From Escherichia coli (GTDB lineage: Bacteria > Pseudomonadota > Gammaproteobacteria > Enterobacterales > Enterobacteriaceae), in assembly GCF_016903815.1 (NCBI RefSeq), contig NZ_CP069975.1: a stretch of DNA of 41,445 bases; one strand, written 5' to 3'. The position numbers and the translations under genes were made by a program. Position 1 is the stretch's first letter. Each line of letters begins with the position of its first letter. Below the pieces are notes generated by a model. That model worked only from the letters and a program-made list of their open reading frames with translations, was not told the DNA's origin and did not search any database. Of this stretch, positions 11,068 through 27,850 are shown in pieces.

Positions 11068-11689
<622 letters not shown>

Positions 11690-11692
11690 AGG

Positions 11693-12169
11693 TCATTTTG
11701 CGCGCTTCAGGCAGCCATCTTCAGGTGCCGCGTTGAAAAGCTCTGCGGCCTTACGTAGCGTAAATGTTGCGATTTTTTTTCCGTCTACGTATGCATCGAA
11801 TGTTTTAACTTCCATATCAGGGGTATCTGACCAAAAACCATACCAGTAACTATCACCCACAGAGGAACCGATAGAACTGATAGGATATTCATCATCACCA
11901 ACTTTCAGCGTTATTTGTTCTTTTTTAGCATCAAATGACTCACCGCCAGGTTCTGTTTTCATGAGAGTGAGTAGTCGTGTTCCTACTTGATTGGGATCCG
12001 TATTATTAAATCCAACATCGCACTCAAATGTAAGCGTATAATTATCTTTGCTGGAAACAGCATAAGAACGAACACCATGAGTCTCGCCGGTTGACCATTT
12101 GCTTACATTTGCCATTGATGAAAACGGAGTAAGCAAAGCAAGAACTAGTAAAAATCGTTTGATGCGCAT
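11693..12169 (-). CDS. Secreted protein with N-terminal signal peptide (sim-region gene)
   Basis: 158-aa ORF; N-terminus MRIKRFLLVLALLTPFSSMA is a typical Sec signal peptide. Confidence 0.6.
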   Translation of the reverse strand: MRIKRFLLVLALLTPFSSMANVSKWSTGETHGVRSYAVSSKDNYTLTFECDVGFNNTDPNQVGTRLLTLMKTEPGGESFDAKKEQITLKVGDDEYPISSIGSSVGDSYWYGFWSDTPDMEVKTFDAYVDGKKIATFTLRKAAELFNAAPEDGCLKRAK

Positions 12170-12220
12170 TAATTTATCTCCTTTGGATATTAATATTTTA
12201 ATTAGTTAACCACCATATAT

Positions 12221-12868
12221 TCACCATTCATAGGGTAAATTAAGCGCTTTTAAACCTTGCTGGAAAGTATTAAGAGATCCGTTTTTTTGTTGTTCCATTT
12301 TTTCGCGTGCAGCTTTCTCATACTGCTCCATCCGTTGGTTATACTCTTGCAATTCCTCCGGGGAGAGGTTTCCCATTGGGGAGTTTGTACCCGGCCCCCT
12401 GGCTCGTTCTTCAAGCGTACCCTGTACGTTTTGATGGCGCATTCCTGGGGCATTTCTTATTGAGTCAATGCCATTTCTTCCAACATCTTCTTTATTAACG
12501 GCATTGCTCGCCACCAGCACACCCCAGCTAGGGATAGCAAAATCAGGAGCGGTTTCGCATGCCTTTACCATATAATCGAAAGTGCTTCGATTGATCTCGT
12601 TTGCGTCGGGATTTAACAGGCTAGAATATTGATATTTAGCATTTTCGTTGGTTGCGACTTTATACAGTTCTTGCTGCACCATCGCTTCAGAAAGTTTAAG
12701 GCGTTTCATATCTGACAGTAACTTCTTGCGCATGGATTCGTCTTGACTGACAGCAAAGCCGTAAACGTGCCCAAGGTATTTCGTATAATCGGTACAAATC
12801 TCCTTTACGCTTGATGCTGCATTAACAGTCCCAGCCATAAATAATAACGGTAGTAATAGTTTTCTCAT
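12221..12868 (-). CDS. Sim-like superinfection-exclusion periplasmic protein (signal peptide; shares a segment with Sit)
   Basis: ORF track 12221..12895; start placed at ATG 12868 (GGTGAGG RBS) giving signal peptide MRKLLLPLLFMAGTVNAAS. Mature part contains NAPGMRHQNVQGTLEERARGPGT, matching Sit residues GRGMRREVVQGTLEERARGKGT. Location between the tube-region genes and the immI-like region matches P1 sim. Confidence 0.6.
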   Translation of the reverse strand: MRKLLLPLLFMAGTVNAASSVKEICTDYTKYLGHVYGFAVSQDESMRKKLLSDMKRLKLSEAMVQQELYKVATNENAKYQYSSLLNPDANEINRSTFDYMVKACETAPDFAIPSWGVLVASNAVNKEDVGRNGIDSIRNAPGMRHQNVQGTLEERARGPGTNSPMGNLSPEELQEYNQRMEQYEKAAREKMEQQKNGSLNTFQQGLKALNLPYEW

Positions 12869-16386: not shown

Positions 16387-16436
16387 TAGATTGCTCTAAT
16401 CTGGAGTCACCTGGCGTTTTCAGTTTGAGGTCGGAG

Positions 16437-16682
16437 ATGCAATCTGATTTTTTACAGTTAGCGATCGCTTTTGCAGGATATGTTTGTATTGGCTTCTGTG
16501 TATACATGATCAGCCGAAAAATGCTTGTCGATATCGACCGCAAAGAACAAGCAGAGGAGATCTTAGAATGGATTTTCTTTGGCGCGGTCTGGCCATTAGG
16601 GATCATGTTTGCTGCAACATTTCTTCTGATGTGGATATTCACCCTTCCAGGTGATTTCTATAGAAAAAAAGCCAGACATTGA
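16437..16682 (+). CDS. Small membrane protein (two predicted TM helices)
   Basis: ORF track 16356..16682; start placed at ATG 16437 directly after GGAG. Hydrophobic segments LAIAFAGYVCIGFCVYMI and IFFGAVWPLGIMFAATFLLMWIF. Confidence 0.4.
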   Translation: MQSDFLQLAIAFAGYVCIGFCVYMISRKMLVDIDRKEQAEEILEWIFFGAVWPLGIMFAATFLLMWIFTLPGDFYRKKARH

Positions 16683-16864
16683 TACAATCGTTGCGGGTGC
16701 TTGAGGCTATCTGCTTCAGGCATTACCCGAAAAGCAGATAGAAGAAAGCCCCAGATAACATTACGCGTCCTGCAAGACGCTTAACATTAATCTGAGGCCA
16801 TATCTATGCTTAGCATACGTAGATTAACCCTCTCCCCTTTTAAGGAGCAAGGAATTTTTTACTG

Positions 16865-17461
16865 CTATGCCGCATTTCCAATTATGGATTCAGCGACCAG
16901 AACAACCCCATGCTTACTTCGATCTGGGTGTTCACTCCATATCTCGGATTCAGGAATACTTACCCCGTCATAGCAAACACGTTCGCCGTCAAACGGGTAA
17001 TACTGAGCGGCATCGGTGTCAAGGATAAACACTTTTAGCTCGGAAGAGCGACGGGCGATGTGTTGCCAAAGAGCTTTTCCACCTTCGTATTGCTCATTAT
17101 CACTGAGCAAAACAACACCAGCTTTTGAGGCTACGGTTTCGTAAACAAAAGTAGCTAAACCGACATCCCGGACGGTTCCATCAACCACGATACCTTCAAT
17201 CTGGGCAACATCGCTATCCTCCCAGAACTTCCTTACCAGTACGCCTTCAAGCTGCGGGCGACGTTGAAGTTCAAGAGTAGCGACAACCTTATGGCGCATA
17301 TCACCATCGATAACAGAAGGCGCAGCCTCTATTACAGCTGCAAATGGGGTTTTGGAATCCCATATAACCTGGTAAAGCACACCCTGGATGGTAACTCCGT
17401 CCAGGATCGAAAATCGACGAGCGACAGTACCCGGGGAGTACGACATTGGAATCACAGCCAT
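16865..17461 (-). CDS. Hypothetical protein (P1 PmgF-like by position)
   Basis: ORF track 16865..17497; start placed at ATG 17461 with strong RBS AAGGGGGA. Confidence 0.5.
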   Translation of the reverse strand: MAVIPMSYSPGTVARRFSILDGVTIQGVLYQVIWDSKTPFAAVIEAAPSVIDGDMRHKVVATLELQRRPQLEGVLVRKFWEDSDVAQIEGIVVDGTVRDVGLATFVYETVASKAGVVLLSDNEQYEGGKALWQHIARRSSELKVFILDTDAAQYYPFDGERVCYDGVSIPESEIWSEHPDRSKHGVVLVAESIIGNAA

Positions 17462-17590
17462 TTTAGAGTCCCCCTTTAACAGTACAGGCACAAACATCTA
17501 CCTCAATAATTGTAGTTTATTAGAACATTAATAATCTAACATAAAACTCAAGACAATGTTATCGATGCATTCTTATATAAAATAGTTATA

Positions 17591-17632: not shown

Positions 17633-18142
17633 TTAATCCCACTCAATCCAGTTGTAGACGATACGAAGTGACGGGCGCACAGCGGCAGTCACATCTTCGG
17701 TACTAAAGTCGATTGCATCACTGTAGATTTTGCAGTCCAACATTTCAATTGTTGTAGCAGCTTTTGTCACAGCGTTAACCCCGGAAGATTTGGATTCAGG
17801 GGTAGCAGCCATCGTGATATCAACATAGTCCTTCGCCGCAATGCGATCCTTGATGAACTGAAGAATATCGCCTTCGATAGTCTCCACGCACTGGACCTGG
17901 ATTTCCCCAGAGTTTCGAATTGGTCCGTGCTGGTTGAACTTCACACCATTCGGACCATAGTCCTCCACATCCTCGCGTGTCATTTCAGGGATTTGCGACG
18001 TGCGAACCAGTACGCTGATATCTTCATGGCCTGCAAAAGTGAGCTGGAATTCAGAAGATACCAGTCGTTCGCCTTTGGCCGCGTTGGCAGTATAGCGGCC
18101 CTTAATAAATTTACGGTTTCCCTTAGTGTTATTGTGCCCCAT
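17633..18142 (-). CDS. Tail/baseplate structural protein (P1 BplB-like by position)
   Basis: 169-aa ORF, last gene of the minus-strand operon starting at the 23004-23028 promoter. Confidence 0.5.
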   Translation of the reverse strand: MGHNNTKGNRKFIKGRYTANAAKGERLVSSEFQLTFAGHEDISVLVRTSQIPEMTREDVEDYGPNGVKFNQHGPIRNSGEIQVQCVETIEGDILQFIKDRIAAKDYVDITMAATPESKSSGVNAVTKAATTIEMLDCKIYSDAIDFSTEDVTAAVRPSLRIVYNWIEWD

Positions 18143-18153
18143 ATAAAATCCTT

Positions 18154-18735
18154 TTACTGGAACGCCCGAACAATATCGGAGCTGTTATATATCGAAGAAC
18201 CGGTCAACTGGAGGTTGACGGTGTTTTTCAGGAAATATCCATTACTGTCCCTTGGCGCATCGAGATCAAAACTTAAGTCCTGGATGGCGACATCGGTGAT
18301 GTTGATCCGGCGACCAATGTTTAGCGTCACGCGCTCCGGGATTCGACCACCAACATTGGCCGCTTTTAGTTCCGGGCTAATCATGGCTGTCAACGCGGCG
18401 ATAGCGCCTGAAACTTCAATGAATGGATTGTTCAAAGCAATGAAAGTTACAGGCAGCGTGAACGTCGGCGGAGTCCCCCCTTCCCAAACCATTAAGCTAT
18501 TCCAACGGGCAACCGACGTTGTTTCAGTACCTACTTGCACAAAACCACCCAGAGCACCAGAAACAGATCCCATGGACATACCGGTAAACGGCGCTTCCCA
18601 ATTCTGGGCCATGTTCATTGCCGCTCCCTGGCTGATATATCCGGTAACCTGGTACTGAGAGTTCGTTAAAGTAACTTTCAGAAATGGCGATACACCGTCA
18701 GCCTGGCTGTAAACCCCATAAGGTATAGGTGCCAT
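18154..18735 (-). CDS. Structural/morphogenesis protein (P1 PmgG-like by position)
   Basis: 193-aa ORF in the structural operon. Confidence 0.5.
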   Translation of the reverse strand: MAPIPYGVYSQADGVSPFLKVTLTNSQYQVTGYISQGAAMNMAQNWEAPFTGMSMGSVSGALGGFVQVGTETTSVARWNSLMVWEGGTPPTFTLPVTFIALNNPFIEVSGAIAALTAMISPELKAANVGGRIPERVTLNIGRRINITDVAIQDLSFDLDAPRDSNGYFLKNTVNLQLTGSSIYNSSDIVRAFQ

Positions 18736-18770
18736 TCAAGTTAAAGGCCGGAGTTCTCCGGCCTCCTCCT

Positions 18771-19586
18771 TTAGCCAAGGCGCTTACGGCGCAGTTTCAT
18801 TGACTTTTTGCGGGCAAGTTTTGCCGCGCCGGTCTGGGCTTTTCGACGCGCTTTTTTCAGCGCCGATTTTTGAGCCGCAGTCAGACGTTTTTTACGCAGG
18901 CGTTTACGGATGAGTTTGATCTCACCGTTACGAACAACCTTCTTAAATGCTTCAGTCAGCATTTCATCAGAAGTGCCAGCAACAACAAACGCCGCTTCCA
19001 GTTCGTCGCGGTCGTCGCTATCTAAACCAGCGATAGAGGCACCAACATCAGCAGCAGCGTCGTCGTCTTCATCGTCAGCCAGTGCTTCGATCAGGTCATC
19101 ATCTACACCGCATGCTGCGAGGAAGTCAGCAACATTTGCCCATGCTTCGTTATAGGCATCGTCCTGTTCTTCTGTAACTTCGGAGTCGTCGTCATCAGAG
19201 ATACCAGCGATAGCCTGAACGAAACCATCAAGGGAGTCGAAAGTCAGATCACCGCTATCAGCCCAGGAGAAAACGGCGTCGGCCGCATCACTCAACGCAT
19301 TCTGCATAGCACTTCGATTTGCAGCTTCCAGAATCATCTGGTGCGCCTGTTCGACGGTCCATTCTTTACCGTCTTTCCCTTCCAGGATTTGCTCTGGAGC
19401 CGGGGCAGATGGAACGTTATCGTTAGTCTGTGCCGCCGGTTCCGGATTATTATTAATAACCGGATCTGTTGGCGGTTCGGCGCTTGCTCGGGCAGACTCC
19501 ATCAGCTGCACAGGATCAGAGTTCAAAGCGAAACGGGACAGTCCATTCCCCAAAAATGCCCCGGATTGAAAAAAGTTTTTGCTCAT
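18771..19586 (-). CDS. Structural protein with acidic core and highly basic C-terminal tail (P1 gene 21-like by position)
   Basis: 271-aa ORF. Central D/E-rich run (DDDDSEVTEEQDD...ALADDEDDDAAAD). C-terminus KLIRKRLRKKRLTAAQKSALKKARRKAQTGAAKLARKKSMKLRRKRLG. Confidence 0.6.
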   Translation of the reverse strand: MSKNFFQSGAFLGNGLSRFALNSDPVQLMESARASAEPPTDPVINNNPEPAAQTNDNVPSAPAPEQILEGKDGKEWTVEQAHQMILEAANRSAMQNALSDAADAVFSWADSGDLTFDSLDGFVQAIAGISDDDDSEVTEEQDDAYNEAWANVADFLAACGVDDDLIEALADDEDDDAAADVGASIAGLDSDDRDELEAAFVVAGTSDEMLTEAFKKVVRNGEIKLIRKRLRKKRLTAAQKSALKKARRKAQTGAAKLARKKSMKLRRKRLG

Positions 19587-19595
19587 TGTATTCCC

Positions 19596-21185
19596 TTACT
19601 TAATAAGCAGCGGTACGCCCTGGATACGACGGGCTACGCCAGTCGGGCAGCAGGCCCAGACTACTTCCCATTTATCGAATTCCGCCTGCGTAACTTTCAG
19701 CACATACGGTTCTGTACCGTCAGCATCGGGATCACGAGGAGCCACCAGAGCGCCGGAGGCGACAAAGCGATCTAAAAGTTTGGTCATCCCTTTAGTCAGG
19801 CCAGCCGCAGTAATACCGTCCGGGCTATGCTTCATCTGTCGGGCTAACTGGACAAAGAAACGACTGATTGCATTCATCAGGGATGGGACGTGCTGGAAGT
19901 GCAGATAGTTATCCTGCGTGCAGCAAGTTAAAGCATCGTCGATGATCATCTGGCCAGAGGTGCCAACAGATACTTTATTGAGACGGCCCTTGACCATTGC
20001 TTCTTCGTCCGGGGTATCTTCCGGATACAGCGGTTGAATTGACGCACGAGCAATGACGGCACGTTCTTCACCAGCCGGTGAGTAATGCCAACCGCCGACA
20101 TCAGAGTTTTTCTTGACGCCACGAGCTTTCGCCGCATACGCCGCGCCAGACAGACCGAAGACCACACGGGATTGGGTCCATTTGTCTTTGCAGGAGAACG
20201 GGTAGTGATAGACAGAACAGCTTACATAATCGGTACCAAGTAAACCGGTACCCTCAACAGCTGTTAGTGCTTCTGCGTACCTTAATGTCGGTTTGACATC
20301 AAAGAAGCCATCAATCAGGCGATCTGCACAGATTTTACCTAATGCGGTGATAGCCGCATTGTCATAGCAGCCCAGGCCAAGAACAGCGGTGTACATGTAC
20401 GGCGCATTATTCAGCACTTTAACCGCACGCAGGTAAGCAGCGGTTGAGATTTTCGACTGATCGCCATTGGTACCGCCAGTGAATGCCACCGATTTTTTAT
20501 TTGTTACTTTCGCTGTAGAAATCAGCTCTTCATTAACAACCGCACGCAGATATTTAGAACGGGCTTCCAGAGCCGTAGGCAGATAACACAAGCGGCCCAT
20601 GTCATCTTTCGCTTCTTCCGCCAAAGACACAGTGTGTGTCTCCAGGGTCGTTACCACACCGAGCGAAGTCGTCTGGGTCAGTTTTAAGAGGAAGCGTTCA
20701 TTACCCGCGCTGTCCGCTGTTGCCGTTTCGATGGTTAACTCACGGGTAGGTGAAATACACGGATCACCATCATCAACGTAGATAGCAAAGGCTTCGCCGC
20801 TATCAAGTTCAATTTCAGAACCGTATGGCAACGCACTGTTAGCCGGTTCGCCTGATTCATCGAACATAATAATCGGGAACTTCGCATCATCCGGAACAGC
20901 ACGGACAACATAACCAGACGTTTGCTGAATAGCTTCGTACACATGGCGAATTGGTTCAAACTGTGAGCCGGAAGACGGCTTCAGCGGTTCGCCAAGAACA
21001 TCTTCGTAATTGGACTCAGTAACCGCAAGAACAGTAAACGGCTTGCCACGCGCAAATACGCCAATACCAGCCCACAAGCTGCTATTTAATGCAACACCGG
21101 TAGATAACGTCGCATCGGCATTGATCGGGCTAACCGCGACGCCGGATGCATTACCTAATGACTGTTGAATTGAATATTGAGACAT
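19596..21185 (-). CDS. Tail sheath-like protein (P1 gene 22-like by size and position)
   Basis: 529-aa ORF directly downstream of the major head gene. Function inferred from size and synteny only. Confidence 0.5.
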   Translation of the reverse strand: MSQYSIQQSLGNASGVAVSPINADATLSTGVALNSSLWAGIGVFARGKPFTVLAVTESNYEDVLGEPLKPSSGSQFEPIRHVYEAIQQTSGYVVRAVPDDAKFPIIMFDESGEPANSALPYGSEIELDSGEAFAIYVDDGDPCISPTRELTIETATADSAGNERFLLKLTQTTSLGVVTTLETHTVSLAEEAKDDMGRLCYLPTALEARSKYLRAVVNEELISTAKVTNKKSVAFTGGTNGDQSKISTAAYLRAVKVLNNAPYMYTAVLGLGCYDNAAITALGKICADRLIDGFFDVKPTLRYAEALTAVEGTGLLGTDYVSCSVYHYPFSCKDKWTQSRVVFGLSGAAYAAKARGVKKNSDVGGWHYSPAGEERAVIARASIQPLYPEDTPDEEAMVKGRLNKVSVGTSGQMIIDDALTCCTQDNYLHFQHVPSLMNAISRFFVQLARQMKHSPDGITAAGLTKGMTKLLDRFVASGALVAPRDPDADGTEPYVLKVTQAEFDKWEVVWACCPTGVARRIQGVPLLIK

Positions 21186-21245: not shown

Positions 21246-22952
21246 TTACTCAGAGTCACCAGCATCAATCGTGTTACCGGTCAGGAAGTTAATTCCGCCA
21301 TTTTTTGCCATAGTCAGAGTTACACGGGTGAAGTAGTCAGCACCGTTGCGTGGATGCATATCGTTGATAGCCGAACCCCACAGAGTGGTTCGGTTGACTA
21401 GTGCCGGGGTGGTCGGATGCTGGAATGGGACAGCCGGGACTGCATCACCAGTTACGAAGCCCGCTTTGCCCGGATTTTCATCACGGACGTAGCACAGCAC
21501 ATCCATTGGGCTGAACTGGATACCGTCGGCGGTCAGGTTCGTACAAATACCTTCTGGTACTTCGAACACTTTGACGTTGCCGAACAGAGTGCCAATGTAG
21601 TGGACGTATGGGGTCTGGATGTAATCTTCTGCTGGCTGGAAGAAATCCTTCGGCAATTGTTTGAAGAAAGATGCCGCATCAGCACCGGCATACATCCCCA
21701 TCGCACCAGAAGATTTAACACGCTCAATAATACCGCGATATACCGTCTGGAATTTGCCTCGAATGATGGTTGCCCACACATCAAAGGTCTGGTTAGCTGG
21801 TAGTGCAATATCAAAGGAGTCGGTCGCAAGAGTTCGCCAAATCATGATACGAAGACGAAGCATATCTTGCTCATGGGACAGGTATTCCTTCAGGGTGCGG
21901 AACTGTAGGGAGCCAAGATCCAGACCAAATTCACGCTGTGCTTCATACGCCGCCTGTACCGTGTGCTCAGCCGCGATGACGAACTGGTTTGGGAACAGGG
22001 TGTAACTCTTCATTTCGTGGTTGATAAGTGGGATCAGCTCAGGAGCTGCTTCTATATTGATCTCCGCCTCAATGGCGATCTCAGTGCCTTTATCCGGCGC
22101 TTTGGAGAACGACAGGGCAATCTGACCAACGTTGTAATTCAAAGAGCAAGTAACAGTGATTTGTTCGCCTGCTTTGTTATTGAATGTGTGAAGCAGAGTA
22201 CCGGAGCCGTTATCAACAACAGACTTAATACGGTTAACGTAGATGTTTGTGCGACCTTTGCGAATCGGGACATTCTGACCTTCGACATCTTCCATCTTGA
22301 AGGTTGCAGTTTTGCTGGTGCCGTCGGAGCTTGCAACCAGCACATAGCGGCGGCGCAACTGGCTGTACACGCCAACGGATTGCATGTCCAGAACATCACC
22401 AATAGCATAGGAGCCAAAAGAAGAACCCGCTACGTTAAAGATTTCATAGATTTCGGACTTGTCACGCGTAACCGGAATGAATGTACACGCATCAGCGGTA
22501 GCTGCCCCCAACTGAACAGGCAGGATCATCGCCAAGAATAAAGGCAGACGCATAACCCCGTCAGAAACACTCATCATCTCTGCCGCGACTGATTCCAGCA
22601 TCGCTTTATTGGTGGCGTCCATGCTATTGCGGGTGGACTCAATCAGGCAGTTTTCCAGCGTCTGATGGCAGGAGGCCAGAATTTCCGGACGTGGCATAGA
22701 TTTATGTGTTGCGGCGTAGTCAGCCAGTGCACTTGCCCACGCTGTAGCGATTTGAGCGGTGGCATTATCAGAGATACCCGCAAAAATTGGGTCTTTACGT
22801 GCAGCTTCAAGGATAGATGCGGCACGCGCGGCATCATCTTTAATGAATTGGTTATCAGTACCGAACTGCGCAGTGCTTGCCCAGCCAAGCACAGCTTTAG
22901 AGCGTTTTGCGATATCTGCAATACGATTCTGGTATTCGCGTAAGTTACTCAA
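21246..22952 (-). CDS. Major head (capsid) protein (P1 gene 23-like by size and position)
   Basis: ORF track 21246..22973 starts at TTG; I place the start at in-frame TTG 22952 preceded by AAGGAAGAG (no in-frame ATG nearby). First gene after the candidate late promoter 23004-23028. Confidence 0.55.
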   Translation of the reverse strand: MSNLREYQNRIADIAKRSKAVLGWASTAQFGTDNQFIKDDAARAASILEAARKDPIFAGISDNATAQIATAWASALADYAATHKSMPRPEILASCHQTLENCLIESTRNSMDATNKAMLESVAAEMMSVSDGVMRLPLFLAMILPVQLGAATADACTFIPVTRDKSEIYEIFNVAGSSFGSYAIGDVLDMQSVGVYSQLRRRYVLVASSDGTSKTATFKMEDVEGQNVPIRKGRTNIYVNRIKSVVDNGSGTLLHTFNNKAGEQITVTCSLNYNVGQIALSFSKAPDKGTEIAIEAEINIEAAPELIPLINHEMKSYTLFPNQFVIAAEHTVQAAYEAQREFGLDLGSLQFRTLKEYLSHEQDMLRLRIMIWRTLATDSFDIALPANQTFDVWATIIRGKFQTVYRGIIERVKSSGAMGMYAGADAASFFKQLPKDFFQPAEDYIQTPYVHYIGTLFGNVKVFEVPEGICTNLTADGIQFSPMDVLCYVRDENPGKAGFVTGDAVPAVPFQHPTTPALVNRTTLWGSAINDMHPRNGADYFTRVTLTMAKNGGINFLTGNTIDAGDSE

Positions 22953-23003
22953 TTTACTCTTCCTTAAACACAAGGCACTTGTGTGAATCCCTTTTCGGAA
23001 GAG

Positions 23004-25444: not shown

Positions 25445-25532
25445 AAAATAATAATGTATGCGTAGATGCTTGTACATAGCATTTTCTGCATGTTTGGTTC
25501 ATTTTGCACGATTGAGAGTTACAAGGAGGGCA

Positions 25533-25555
25533 CAAAAAAGCCCCGTTCAGGGGCA
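25533..25555 (-). terminator. Rho-independent terminator after the two-gene insertion cassette
   Basis: On the minus strand GCCCC-TGAAC-GGGGC followed by TTTTTT; starts 7 nt after the stop of the 25562..25810 ORF. Confidence 0.7.
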
Positions 25556-25561
25556 TCAGTG

Positions 25562-25810
25562 TTATTTGCTAAGAGCAGCGAATAATCGTTCGAAATCGAT
25601 AGTATCTATAGCACGCGTAAGCGCCGGAAGTTCAGCCTCAAAGTACCCGTGTCGATCGTAAAAGAAGGGACCGAAGAGCGAGGCATGTTGGATTCTACTT
25701 CGCCCCAGCCCGGACACACAGTTAAGCCCATTACCGGCTAAAAGGCTAAAAAACTTCTCTGGATTATCGTGGTAAAGCTGGGAATCAATGGTGGCGGTTA
25801 ACTCTTCCAT
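25562..25810 (-). CDS. Small hypothetical protein, translationally coupled to the upstream T5orf172-like gene
   Basis: ORF track 25562..25822; likely start ATG 25810, lying 13 nt inside the end of the upstream gene (ATGGAAGAGTTAA overlap); followed by a terminator. Confidence 0.5.
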   Translation of the reverse strand: MEELTATIDSQLYHDNPEKFFSLLAGNGLNCVSGLGRSRIQHASLFGPFFYDRHGYFEAELPALTRAIDTIDFERLFAALSK

Positions 25811-26373
25811 AGGGAAGCACACCCGCCCTGTATATCCCAGGGATATTTAGTCCGAAGCATAAACATTGCTTTCAGCAATTCACATTGAGCGCGGATCGCG
25901 TCCGGTTCATAGCCAGATATGGAGACATAAGCCACGTCCCTCATTCCTGCGTCATCTTTGAAAGTCACGATAGAAGTAACATCCAGCTCTTTTTCGAAAG
26001 AGCAAGCAGCATCTACTGGACGCTGAAGTAAATCATTCGACTTAATGCGCTCGAGAATCCCTCCCCACATATCATTTAGATATTCGATATGAGCCAAAAC
26101 CTTATCAAGACACTCTCGTGTAAACCATTCAGTATGCCCGCCACCGACGCTTTTCTCCCACGGCGCATTCCAGGGGAAAAAGGTTGCGTGTAAAGCCCGC
26201 TCAAGATTAACCATTGCCAAACGCGTACCACGATAGACCCGTGAAAGCGCAAAATCGGGACTCACTTGTAGCCCTTTAAACCGTGCCAATGGACCACATG
26301 AAATGCCGATTTTAAAAGTATCTCCGTTCTCTGGCACCAGAACGTAGAGGTAGTGTTGTTTCTCTTCTTGCAT
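25798..26373 (-). CDS. T5orf172 / GIY-YIG-like domain protein (cargo gene between incA and the par promoter)
   Basis: 191-aa ORF; N-terminal YLYVLVPENGDTFKIGIS...RFKGLQ...LERALHATF...GGGHTEWF matches the T5orf172 domain pattern as I recall it (hydrophobic strand, KIG, conserved LH, terminal EWF). Confidence 0.6.
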   Translation of the reverse strand: MQEEKQHYLYVLVPENGDTFKIGISCGPLARFKGLQVSPDFALSRVYRGTRLAMVNLERALHATFFPWNAPWEKSVGGGHTEWFTRECLDKVLAHIEYLNDMWGGILERIKSNDLLQRPVDAACSFEKELDVTSIVTFKDDAGMRDVAYVSISGYEPDAIRAQCELLKAMFMLRTKYPWDIQGGCASLWKS

Positions 26374-26399
26374 ATCAATACCACTGCTTGATGAGAACC

Positions 26400-26665
26400 G
26401 CGCAAATGTTGACTATGCGCGAAGGTTAATGTGAATAGTTGACTATGCGCGATGTGACTACAGTCAAAAGTTGACTGTAGTCGATTTAACTCCACCAAAG
26501 ATCGACTATGTAAGATATTGTCGGGAGAAACGTTGACTATACGCGATGAAATGCCCCTAAAAGCCATCTCAATAGCGACTTGCAGAATATTGACGCCAGC
26601 AAAAATCCACCAGCGTCAACGAATGTCGCCTATAGTCAACTTCTCGCTATCGCATATAGTCAATA
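26400..26665. repeat. incA-like iteron array (RepA-binding control locus)
   Basis: At least 7 copies of a ~15-bp iteron TTGACTAT(G/A)CGCGA and variants, in both orientations: 26408, 26437, 26470, 26503, 26533; inverted copies at 26624 and 26650. Confidence 0.8.
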
Positions 26666-27550
26666 TTATGGATTGCGCTTATGGATCTGGAAGCCGATTT
26701 TCCTGCCGTTTTTTATCTCTGAAAATTTAAGATATTCAATAGCTTCCAAATCTTTCATGGCTTTTCTGATAACGCTATTTTGCACGCTAACGGATGATTT
26801 GAGATTAAGCCTCGCTCTAAGGCGCTCAATGCTGACAGGTGCCGGGTTGGCGGGTAGAGCCTCAAAGAATGTATACAGTACCTTGGCCGTCTCTTTGCGC
26901 CCTAGTTTATCCAGCATCTTCAGCTTCAGGATTCGCTTATAGTCAACATAGTAAAGTTCAGATAGCTGTTTCTGCGGCTGGATCTCGATAACATCAAGCT
27001 CGGTATTCAGGCTGCTATATGCCAACAAGTTGACGTTAATGTTATTGAGATGACCTTTTGCCGCCGGGAAGCGGAATTTGACAACTGTCTGCTGAATGCG
27101 TGTCAGAGAGTCATCAATACTTTTACGGAACGCCTTTGAAAGGCGCTTACGTGGATAGCCGCATCGATCGGCAAACTCGGAGAATGGCAGGGTGATTATG
27201 CCGTCATCATCAGGTGCGTAGTCAAACAACGCGGAGGTTATGCCCACCCACACCTTAAAATCAGTATCCATATCCAGGCGTGGACCATGAATTTCAATTC
27301 CCTCATAGCCTTCCTGCTCAACAATTTTGAGGCTTGATAGTTCTTCAGTTGCGTTCGTTGTGTTTGTTGTAACTGACGATCCGCGACGTAGCGCCACATT
27401 GGTAGATTTTAAGGTTGGCACAAACACACCTAAGCGCAACAAAGCGATGGGTTGTATAGTGCTGTTGTTATTGGGCTTCAGGCTGTGGATTTCTCCTGTA
27501 TTTCCTGCAACTTCTTCAACGCTAAGGAAGCCTTTACTTTCTTCCGGCAT
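26666..27550 (-). CDS. repA: Iteron-binding plasmid replication initiator RepA
   Basis: ORF track 26666..27586 starts at TTG; start placed at ATG 27550 with GGAGAAA RBS. Flanked by iteron arrays on both sides. Confidence 0.8.
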   Translation of the reverse strand: MPEESKGFLSVEEVAGNTGEIHSLKPNNNSTIQPIALLRLGVFVPTLKSTNVALRRGSSVTTNTTNATEELSSLKIVEQEGYEGIEIHGPRLDMDTDFKVWVGITSALFDYAPDDDGIITLPFSEFADRCGYPRKRLSKAFRKSIDDSLTRIQQTVVKFRFPAAKGHLNNINVNLLAYSSLNTELDVIEIQPQKQLSELYYVDYKRILKLKMLDKLGRKETAKVLYTFFEALPANPAPVSIERLRARLNLKSSVSVQNSVIRKAMKDLEAIEYLKFSEIKNGRKIGFQIHKRNP

Positions 27551-27589
27551 CACGGTTTCTCCATGTGTGGCGCGGCCTGACGTCAATTT

Positions 27590-27850
27590 GGATGGCTGTT
27601 ATCAACAGCTGTGAATATTCAGACTCTAAAATCGCTTACAGTCAATGTTTCTGTCGCGTATAGTCAACAATAAATCGCGTGCAGTCAACAATAAATCGTG
27701 CACAGTCAACATAAAATCGCGTATAGTCAATGTTGATCCCATTTCAGGCCAGTAATGACGCGGCTTACAGCGATCCGGGATCTTCTTTGGATCTTCCTAG
27801 GTTCTCTTTAGGATCTGTTTATTGGATCTATGCTGTGGATAAGTTGAATA
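27590..27850. promoter_or_regulatory. Plasmid origin oriR / incC: five iterons, GATC cluster, DnaA boxes
   Basis: Five direct iterons TCGCGTATAGTCAA-type at 27625-27735. Six GATC sites within 95 bp (27735, 27772, 27779, 27790, 27812, 27825). DnaA box TGTGGATAA at 27834-27842 and TTATCAACA-like box near 27612. Confidence 0.8.

Follow-up and report, generated by a model that had tools for sequence, protein, structure and literature searches.

The stretch of Escherichia coli DNA analysed here (41,445 nucleotides of contig NZ_CP069975.1; hereafter, the window) contains the counterpart of gene 21 of phage P1, a late gene labelled in databases as 'baseplate or tail tube', as 'tail tube protein' ('tail tube protein Gp21') or simply as 'hypothetical'. 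At the nucleotide level, its open reading frame (ORF) is 97.9% identical to positions 54592-55407 of NC_005856, which confirms the identification as P1 gene 21 made in the initial annotation of this DNA, and 100% identical to the copy present in phage vB_EcoM-813R1. On account of these two identities, the window can be considered a P1-like phage-plasmid. Gene 21 belongs to a late operon with the order 23, 22, 21, pmgG, bplB, with a terminator-like hairpin after bplB:

21246..22973, gene 23, major capsid protein
19596..21185, gene 22, sheath
18771..19586, minus strand, gene 21, complete ORF of 271 amino acids plus stop with an ATG start, ortholog of phage P1 gene 21 (PHROG 1053)
18154..18735, pmgG, following gene 21
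17633..18142, bplB, following pmgG

The encoded protein matches phrog_1053 (E=1.7e-99), a family of unknown function. From the comparison of its sequence with the maturation site of the capsid protein, it is proposed here that the product of gene 21 is probably a precursor located inside the prohead, cut by the T4-type protease Pro after E30, E87 and E212, and not a part of the tail or the baseplate.

The charge distribution that first drew attention to this protein, described as an acidic core rich in Asp and Glu followed by a 45-residue tail of about 50% Lys/Arg, was found as stated. Residues 101-215 contain 31% Asp/Glu (36 acidic and 2 basic residues, net charge -34), and the last 45 residues contain 49% Lys/Arg (22 basic residues and no acidic ones, net charge +22). 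The most positive and the most negative 45-residue segments lie 42 charge units apart and, as 28 was the widest gap among 20,000 composition-preserving shuffles, this segregation is far beyond chance. The same pattern is found in about 117 homologs, in which the mean charge is -30 for the region preceding the basic module, about +20 for the module itself, and -9 ± 4 for the whole protein. One homolog search gave 86 sequences and an exhaustive one 317 representative clusters at E≤1e-3, which reach elements from Vibrio, Mailhella, Xenorhabdus and others. Conservation within the family is highest in the basic tail, with the consensus KVVRxGxVK...AAQKxALKKARRKAxTxxAKxxRxKSMKxRxKRG, the acidic region being kept mainly in composition.

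Disorder and structure, whose prediction had also been proposed, were addressed with an AlphaFold (AF2) model built on a 33-sequence alignment, of moderate overall confidence (mean predicted local distance difference test, pLDDT, of 67). It gives a disordered N-terminus (residues 1-60), a confident acidic domain of six helices (residues 77-205, pLDDT 80-90) and, after a low-confidence linker, two basic helices (residues 236-268). The acidic body is a compact helical bundle, with no elongated coiled coil. Comparison of the protein with Pfam gave sub-threshold noise only, sequence and profile searches of the PDB gave no match, and the fold of the model matched neither the PDB nor, with Foldseek, BFVD at E≤0.001. 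In PHROGs, the only match is the family of unknown function mentioned above, and Pfam scans of the longer homologs revealed no fused protease and no other informative domain.

The motif on which the proposal is based comes from the major capsid protein of P1, which is cut between E120 and S121, in KAMLE/SVAAE (the slash marks the cut), as determined by Edman sequencing (PMC9024508). In the window, this site is located as follows:

22581..22604, minus strand, gene 23 maturation site KAMLE/SVA, E120/S121 in P1 numbering (Edman sequencing, PMC9024508)

The motif consists of two hydrophobic residues and a Glu before the cut, and a Ser or Ala after it, and the gene-21 family has three conserved copies (LME/S, ILE/A and LTE/A). 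P1 Pro is a homolog of T4 gp21 (5JBL; HHpred 99.4%, supplement of PMC9024508), its relationship to the S77 proteases not being detected directly with Pfam. T4 gp21 cuts after L/I-x-E, and the substrates compiled in a review are all prohead core, internal or shell proteins; the core proteins of T4 are chopped into several fragments, and its internal proteins shed N-terminal targeting propeptides (PMC9026906).

Other P1 proteins were inspected for the same motif. DarA (639 amino acids; P1 darA, L170 3405-5324), which is known to be processed, has two matches only, at residues 40-43 (LMTE/S) and 66-69 (DLLE/A). A cut after E68 in DLLE/A would predict A69 as the mature N-terminus of DarA, and this fits the invisibility of residues 1-69 by cryo-electron microscopy (cryo-EM). 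Hdf, reported in the literature as unprocessed, has zero matches. Pro itself, whose gene lies outside the window (L009 15-1034), has 5 copies at positions that are conserved or invariant among its homologs, and its sequence suggests that P1 Pro could be a small protease-scaffold fusion degrading itself. The C-terminal half of Pro gave only weak sub-threshold matches to coiled-coil families. The label 'tail fiber protein' that RefSeq and PHROG 1801 give to Pro is an annotation error. Separately, the P1 portal (prt, L008 1813-3522) has a single copy, QILE/SVFKEGNDND, located about 10 residues from its C-terminus, a copy that may serve in trimming or have arisen by chance, and one motif, VVLLE/SQG, is present in the tape-measure protein (sit fragment of vB_EcoM-813R1, L010 18706-19323).

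In the protein encoded in the window, the three conserved motifs delimit the following parts:

19497..19586, minus strand, N-terminal peptide, residues 1-30, MSKNFFQSGAFLGNGLSRFALNSDPVQLME; propeptide predicted to be lost by the cut at site 1, disordered in the AF2 model
19488..19508, minus strand, predicted protease site 1, QLME/SAR, residues 27-33, cut after E30; conserved motif
19359..19496, minus strand, disordered linker rich in Pro, Ala and Asn, residues 31-76; pLDDT <50, gaps in the alignment
18951..19358, minus strand, acidic helical core, residues 77-212, with six predicted helices; from the AF2 model and charge
19320..19337, minus strand, predicted protease site 2, MILE/AA, residues 84-89, cut after E87; start of the helical core
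18942..18962, minus strand, predicted protease site 3, MLTE/AFK, residues 209-215, cut after E212; junction of the acidic and basic parts
18774..18950, minus strand, basic module, residues 213-271, AFKKVVRNGEIKLIRKRLRKKRLTAAQKSALKKARRKAQTGAAKLARKKSMKLRRKRLG; most conserved part, predicted excised peptide

Site 1 is a conserved motif within an otherwise variable N-terminus and, by their likeness to the capsid-targeting propeptides of T4 (PMC9026906), residues 1-30 are possibly a capsid-targeting sequence. The linker varies in length across the family and includes a further candidate site, QILE/G, after E69. Site 2 is a conserved column in the alignment of 30 loci described below, and its acid type tracks the lineage (ILD/DA and MLD/AV in the D-type loci). 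The junction reads MLTE/AFKKVVRNG in the window, and a site-like motif is found at most 14 amino acids upstream of the basic module in 86 of the 117 homologs. From the 29-kDa protein, cleavage is predicted to yield residues 1-30 (3.3 kDa), 31-212 (19 kDa, net charge -42) and 213-271 (59 amino acids and 6.8 kDa, with a computed isoelectric point (pI) of 12 and a net charge of +25). Within the second of them, residues 88-212 have a net charge of -35 and a pI of about 4, and additional candidate sites follow E69, E87 and E167. Trypsin would be expected to release only LTAAQK and AQTGAAK from the basic peptide, and a 102-residue peptide plus semi-tryptic ends from the acidic core. After the predicted processing, the gene-21 protein would give almost zero fully tryptic peptides of at least 7 amino acids.

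The relationship between these sites and that of the capsid protein was analysed in 30 diverged loci, all with the genes for the capsid protein, (a small protein), the sheath, a gene-21 homolog, PmgG and BplB. These loci were gathered by a search seeded with a distant sequence. Their gene order is the same in every locus with the flanking genes on the DNA. At the capsid site, the residue before the cut is Glu in 19 of the 30 aligned loci, Asp in 9 and Ala in 2, and it is equal to the residue at the gene-21 junction site in 28/30, an agreement reached by 0 of 100,000 label permutations in a test that ignores kinship among loci. Thus, for instance, the capsid protein of locus L108 has LMLA/SA and its gene-21 homolog has LMLA/SA and LMLA/AV, while MLD/SV in the capsid protein of L120 is accompanied by MLD/AV and MMD/AV in the homolog. 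The lineages without Glu are mutually distant (28-50% identity between their capsid proteins). Furthermore, more than one switch is suggested, since the mature N-arm motif EGVEIRAKQAALILP is common to the D-type loci L120 and L121 and to the E-type locus L115.

Motif density, scored with each lineage's own acid, is 1.82 per 100 amino acids in the N-terminal propeptide (delta domain) of the capsid protein and 1.09 in the gene-21 homologs, and falls to 0.07-0.17 in the mature capsid protein, the sheath, PmgG and BplB. The gene-21 homologs contain 72 motifs, compared with 11.9 ± 3.5 in composition-preserving shuffles (roughly a 6-fold excess), and with 16 only when the wrong acid is scored (Asp and Glu swapped). 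When 14 conserved neighbour protein groups were screened in this way, clear enrichment was found only in the capsid protein (73 vs 13) and in the gene-21 homologs (72 vs 16); Tub is a minor exception (11 vs 2), with a density near background, and the tape-measure group failed the coverage filter of the screen. The data show that these sites are present and conserved, that they change together with the capsid site, and that the basic module is bracketed by them. Conserved capsid-type sites, together with a covarying residue before the cut, point to the gene-21 protein as one of the prohead protease's substrates, and hence as internal to the prohead. The initial annotation had likened the charge pattern to that of scaffold or internal DNA-binding head proteins, as unusual for a tail gene; the sites and the covariation argue for the location inside the prohead, of a protein that may be a scaffold, the precursor of a DNA-binding peptide or an injected effector.

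Longer homologs are present in phages with T4-like heads, including Bacillus phage SP-15 (SP15_037) and Listeria phage LIS04. In SP-15-like phages, the genes for an S77 protease and a gp23-like capsid protein, a small gene, a gp13-like neck gene and the homolog are followed by five to six small genes, the sheath gene and the tube gene. In L166 and L167, the protease adjoining the gene-21 homologs is of the PF03420 family, and the S77 protease of the SP-15-like phages carries a fused C-terminal region of about 400 amino acids that by eye is coiled-coil and scaffold-like (L166 1185-2954; L167 3353-5077). In SP-15-like homologs the basic module is internal or duplicated, with [LI]xE sites on both flanks. 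Thus, homolog P0217 has DLTE/NSKVVVRNG ... RKRRIGE/SLD; the first module of P0213 is delimited by MILE/SG ... AGLIGE/GV and the second by TRIE/KVVRGG ... RKIGE/SV; and P0221 has ... RMGLDE/SV. Internal modules flanked by sites are the pattern to be expected if the basic module is excised to give a free peptide. Other homologs have N-terminal extensions with 3-7 repeats of the motif. Gene order was also considered as a discriminator between head and tail functions and was set aside as uninformative, because gene 21 sits at the boundary of the head and tail modules in both groups of phages.

Published data on gene 21 come from several sources. The P1 virion proteome comprises 23 proteins, including the products of the flanking ORFs 54, 55, 57 and 58, and ORF 56 (gp21) is absent from it. 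Absence from particles had been named beforehand as an observation that would speak against a head protein; nominally, it is found here, yet it is uninformative, since that proteome was trypsin-based and the predicted processing would leave almost zero usable tryptic peptides. In two cryo-EM studies, BplB is identified as the tube, Tub as its initiator and PmgG as the tube-linking ring, and all other resolved density of the head, neck, tail and baseplate is assigned to proteins other than gp21. By CRISPR interference (CRISPRi) gene 21 was scored as 'essential', its authors warning of polarity, and no weight was given to this score, since a roadblock placed in gene 21 has polar effects on pmgG and bplB. 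Taking into account that the proteome, cryo-EM and CRISPRi lend no support to it, the tail assignment goes back solely to the amber mutants of 1983, and the tail or baseplate annotation of gene 21 has no structural support.

Some observations weigh against a precursor internal to the prohead. The 'gene 21' ambers of Walker & Walker 1983, which were mapped genetically, reportedly had a baseplate or tail-tube phenotype, and in all the loci examined the gene has the sheath gene on one side and pmgG/bplB on the other. It has also been thought that P1 scaffolds its head with the 120-residue N-terminal propeptide of the capsid protein, a separate core protein not being required. The covariation comes from a phylogenetically structured set of loci, in which the independent switches (not counted on a tree) number perhaps 2-8, and two loci are discordant, L106 (D vs E) and L004 (A vs S). 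Protease genes of the D and A types were absent from the flanks examined, in a search whose Pro-profile scan reached close relatives of Pro only; a Pro of Vibrio fluvialis (P0345) proved to be of the E type and from another element than L004. It has to be noted, finally, that we infer the cleavage of gp21, its presence in proheads, and the fate and role of the peptide from sequence.

Some of these observations could be accommodated by a tail or baseplate assembly factor, that is, a non-structural chaperone for the tube, sheath or baseplate that is later discarded and that might hold subunits, for instance, by charge complementarity. The order sheath, 21, pmgG, bplB is constant in all of at least 30 P1-like loci, the classical ambers are said, in a source citing them, to have been scored as baseplate or tube defects, and absence from the virion also suits a chaperone. 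This explanation is nevertheless considered unlikely, as it leaves unexplained the three capsid-type motifs, their covariation with the capsid site and the sites flanking internal modules. Moreover, the SP-15-like homolog lies beside the protease, capsid and gp13-like neck genes, with five to six genes between it and the sheath gene that follows, and a tail phenotype would equally be expected from mutations in bplB (the true tube gene) or pmgG, or from a polar amber in ORF 21. The predicted fold is all-helical, without similarity to tube, baseplate or chaperone proteins, and no match to tube or baseplate families was found in Pfam, the PDB or BFVD. A role as tape-measure chaperone is not supported, the position just upstream of the tape-measure gene being held by PmgB, and a PHROG chaperone match was obtained for 1/102 members of the family and was marginal. 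Within a location inside the head, the main alternative is a true scaffold or core protein, in which the acidic domain would shape the prohead, the basic pair of C-terminal helices would anchor the capsid protein, and the cut at the junction would free the scaffold, in the manner of the herpesvirus protease acting on the C-terminal tail of its scaffold; the basic peptide would have no function after that. All the evidence for a protease substrate applies equally to it. The basic C-terminus, the most conserved part and predicted as two helices, is like the coat-binding domain of the P22 scaffold, a separate scaffold protein is not known for P1, and the size, acidity and helicity of the gene-21 protein recall T4 gp22. 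However, no known scaffold family was matched in the searches made, and the AF2 body is a compact bundle instead of an elongated coiled coil. P1 already has the 120-residue capsid propeptide and the coiled-coil-like C-terminal half of Pro, with its cleavage sites, and SP-15-like phages keep the homolog despite having an S77 protease fused to a scaffold-like region of about 400 amino acids. The duplicated and singly excisable basic modules of P0213 suggest, in addition, a payload and not an anchor. On balance, a scaffold seems unlikely.

It could also be proposed that gene 21 encodes a packaged anti-defence effector, the acidic domain being a payload similar to DNA mimics that is injected with the DNA, and the basic module targeting or tethering it. 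The Dar system of P1 comprises several packaged anti-restriction proteins processed by Pro, the processed acidic core is also devoid of fully tryptic peptides, so that its absence from the proteome proves little, and a compact domain of net charge -35 recalls DNA-mimic proteins. With no structural match to known DNA mimics, with an acidic region conserved in composition rather than in sequence and a basic module that is the most conserved part, and with candidate sites inside the core (E69, E87 and E167) that suggest its degradation, we regard such a function as highly unlikely. The last explanation to be considered is that the motif is not a cleavage site and has instead a helix-capping or protein-binding role, its resemblance to the capsid site being coincidental and the function of the protein unrelated to the head. 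The motif is indeed short, PmgC, RepL and RepA each have a single copy by chance, and the cleavage of gp21 is a prediction. Chance, however, fails to account for the roughly 6-fold excess over shuffles, for the specificity in acid type, and for the lineage-matched switches among Glu, Asp and Ala at several sites in two proteins, and a coincidence of this kind is hardly credible.

If the gene-21 product is, as preferred here, a precursor processed within the prohead, the cuts by Pro would free the 30-residue propeptide, the strongly acidic helical domain and the conserved 59-residue peptide of charge +25. The acidic domain may keep the precursor net-negative and soluble, masking the basic module until entry into the prohead. 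Once cut, the acidic fragments would leave the capsid or be displaced by the incoming DNA, and the basic peptide would remain with the packaged DNA or on the capsid's inner face. It can be tentatively suggested that P1-like and SP-15-like myophages share a protamine-like head peptide of about 55-60 residues and a charge of about +20 to +25, which would be synthesised within a precursor whose acidic domain masks its charge, excised by an S77 protease and retained on the DNA; this is one possibility, and a less secure one than the location inside the prohead. A putative association of the 59-residue peptide with DNA is suggested by its composition (+25 over 59 amino acids). If retained, the peptide would neutralise charge, and it could affect packaging density, ejection or early post-injection events. 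Such a peptide would have escaped the published analyses of P1, because it would be shredded by trypsin and disordered in cryo-EM. If the protamine-like function is true, the tail phenotype of the classical 'gene 21' mutants would be explained by lesions in pmgG or bplB, or by polarity.

Other features of the locus and its relatives were also noted. Between the stop codon of gene 21 and the start of pmgG, the minus strand of the window can form a very stable RNA hairpin (18731-18775; -23.8 kcal/mol, z = -5.0 vs shuffles), whose stem holds the sole Shine-Dalgarno-like GGAGG, the ATG of pmgG having no ribosome-binding site at the normal spacing. This hairpin could be an element for stabilising or processing the RNA, or could set the translation of pmgG and bplB relative to that of genes 23, 22 and 21. 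With respect to the P1 reference, three regions of the window have no blastn alignment (25493-27755, 16401-17590 and 11687-12728), the DNA between them being 96-98% identical. They correspond, respectively, to the replication origin/repA/incA region, to pmgF-rlfB-rlfA and to the simB/simC region of P1, and in the second of them pmgF is replaced by an ORF of 210 amino acids (16865..17497, minus strand; PHROG 7522), with a weak sub-threshold GNAT match.

Some of the diverged loci have an extra small gene (103-182 amino acids) between the capsid and sheath genes (L002 7924-8235, L004 7952-8377 and L006 7823-8371), which is not present in P1 or in the window; that of L004 had no family match in PHROGs. 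In L004 (6233-16838), an element of Vibrio fluvialis, the two tail operons of P1 are contiguous, with the order capsid gene, small gene, sheath, gene-21 homolog, PmgG, BplB, PmgC, Tub, PmgB and tape measure. The arrangement of P1, split by immunity and replication genes, may be derived.

P1 is a reference phage whose virion has lately been described as almost fully assigned, and gene 21 is one of the few conserved late genes of P1 without a physical location, databases spreading the terms 'tail tube' and 'baseplate'. If the location inside the prohead is true, its annotation would be corrected over more than 300 protein clusters, and the head assembly of P1, a pathway now thought to proceed without a separate core protein, would gain a component. 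It would also predict a packaged and highly basic peptide unseen by standard proteomics and cryo-EM. In addition, covariation with the capsid maturation site may serve as a general, sequence-only finder of prohead protease substrates.

Among known systems, the substrates of the S77 protease gp21 of T4 (gp22, gp67, gp68, IPI-III and Alt) are like the product of P1 gene 21 in having short sites ending in Glu and in being cut into multiple fragments. The N-terminal propeptides that steer T4 internal proteins to the core are comparable to residues 1-30, and the T4 core proteins are acidic and helical, as is the gene-21 protein. Unlike the T4 substrates, the gene-21 protein has no detected sequence or fold homology, its combination of an acidic domain with an excised basic peptide has not been described for T4, and its gene is found among tail genes and not adjacent to that of the protease. 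Adenovirus pVII and pX (pre-mu) follow a similar concept, being precursors of highly basic DNA-associated peptides that the maturation protease frees inside the capsid. However, adenovirus belongs to an unrelated lineage with an unrelated protease, and in the gene-21 protein the basic peptide comes after a large acidic domain.

Scaffolding proteins offer a further comparison. P22 gp8 has a basic C-terminal domain that binds the capsid protein, and the assembly protein of herpesviruses has a C-terminal tail released by the protease. The gene-21 protein shares with them a conserved and basic pair of predicted C-terminal helices and a junction site able to free the remainder of the protein. It differs in having no homology to them and a compact body, and in that P1 has other scaffold-like elements, namely the capsid propeptide and the C-terminal half of Pro. 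The inner-body and ejection proteins of phages phiKZ and SPN3US are also internal to the head, cut after Glu by a diverged T4-like protease and, in some cases, associated with DNA (PMC9026906). In these phages, however, the motif is S/A-x-E, the proteins belong to other families, and a two-part design of acidic and basic regions has not been reported. Compared with all of these, the predicted precursor would be a prohead-protease substrate of a known kind, and its design, an acidic pro-domain joined to an excised basic peptide, is previously undescribed.

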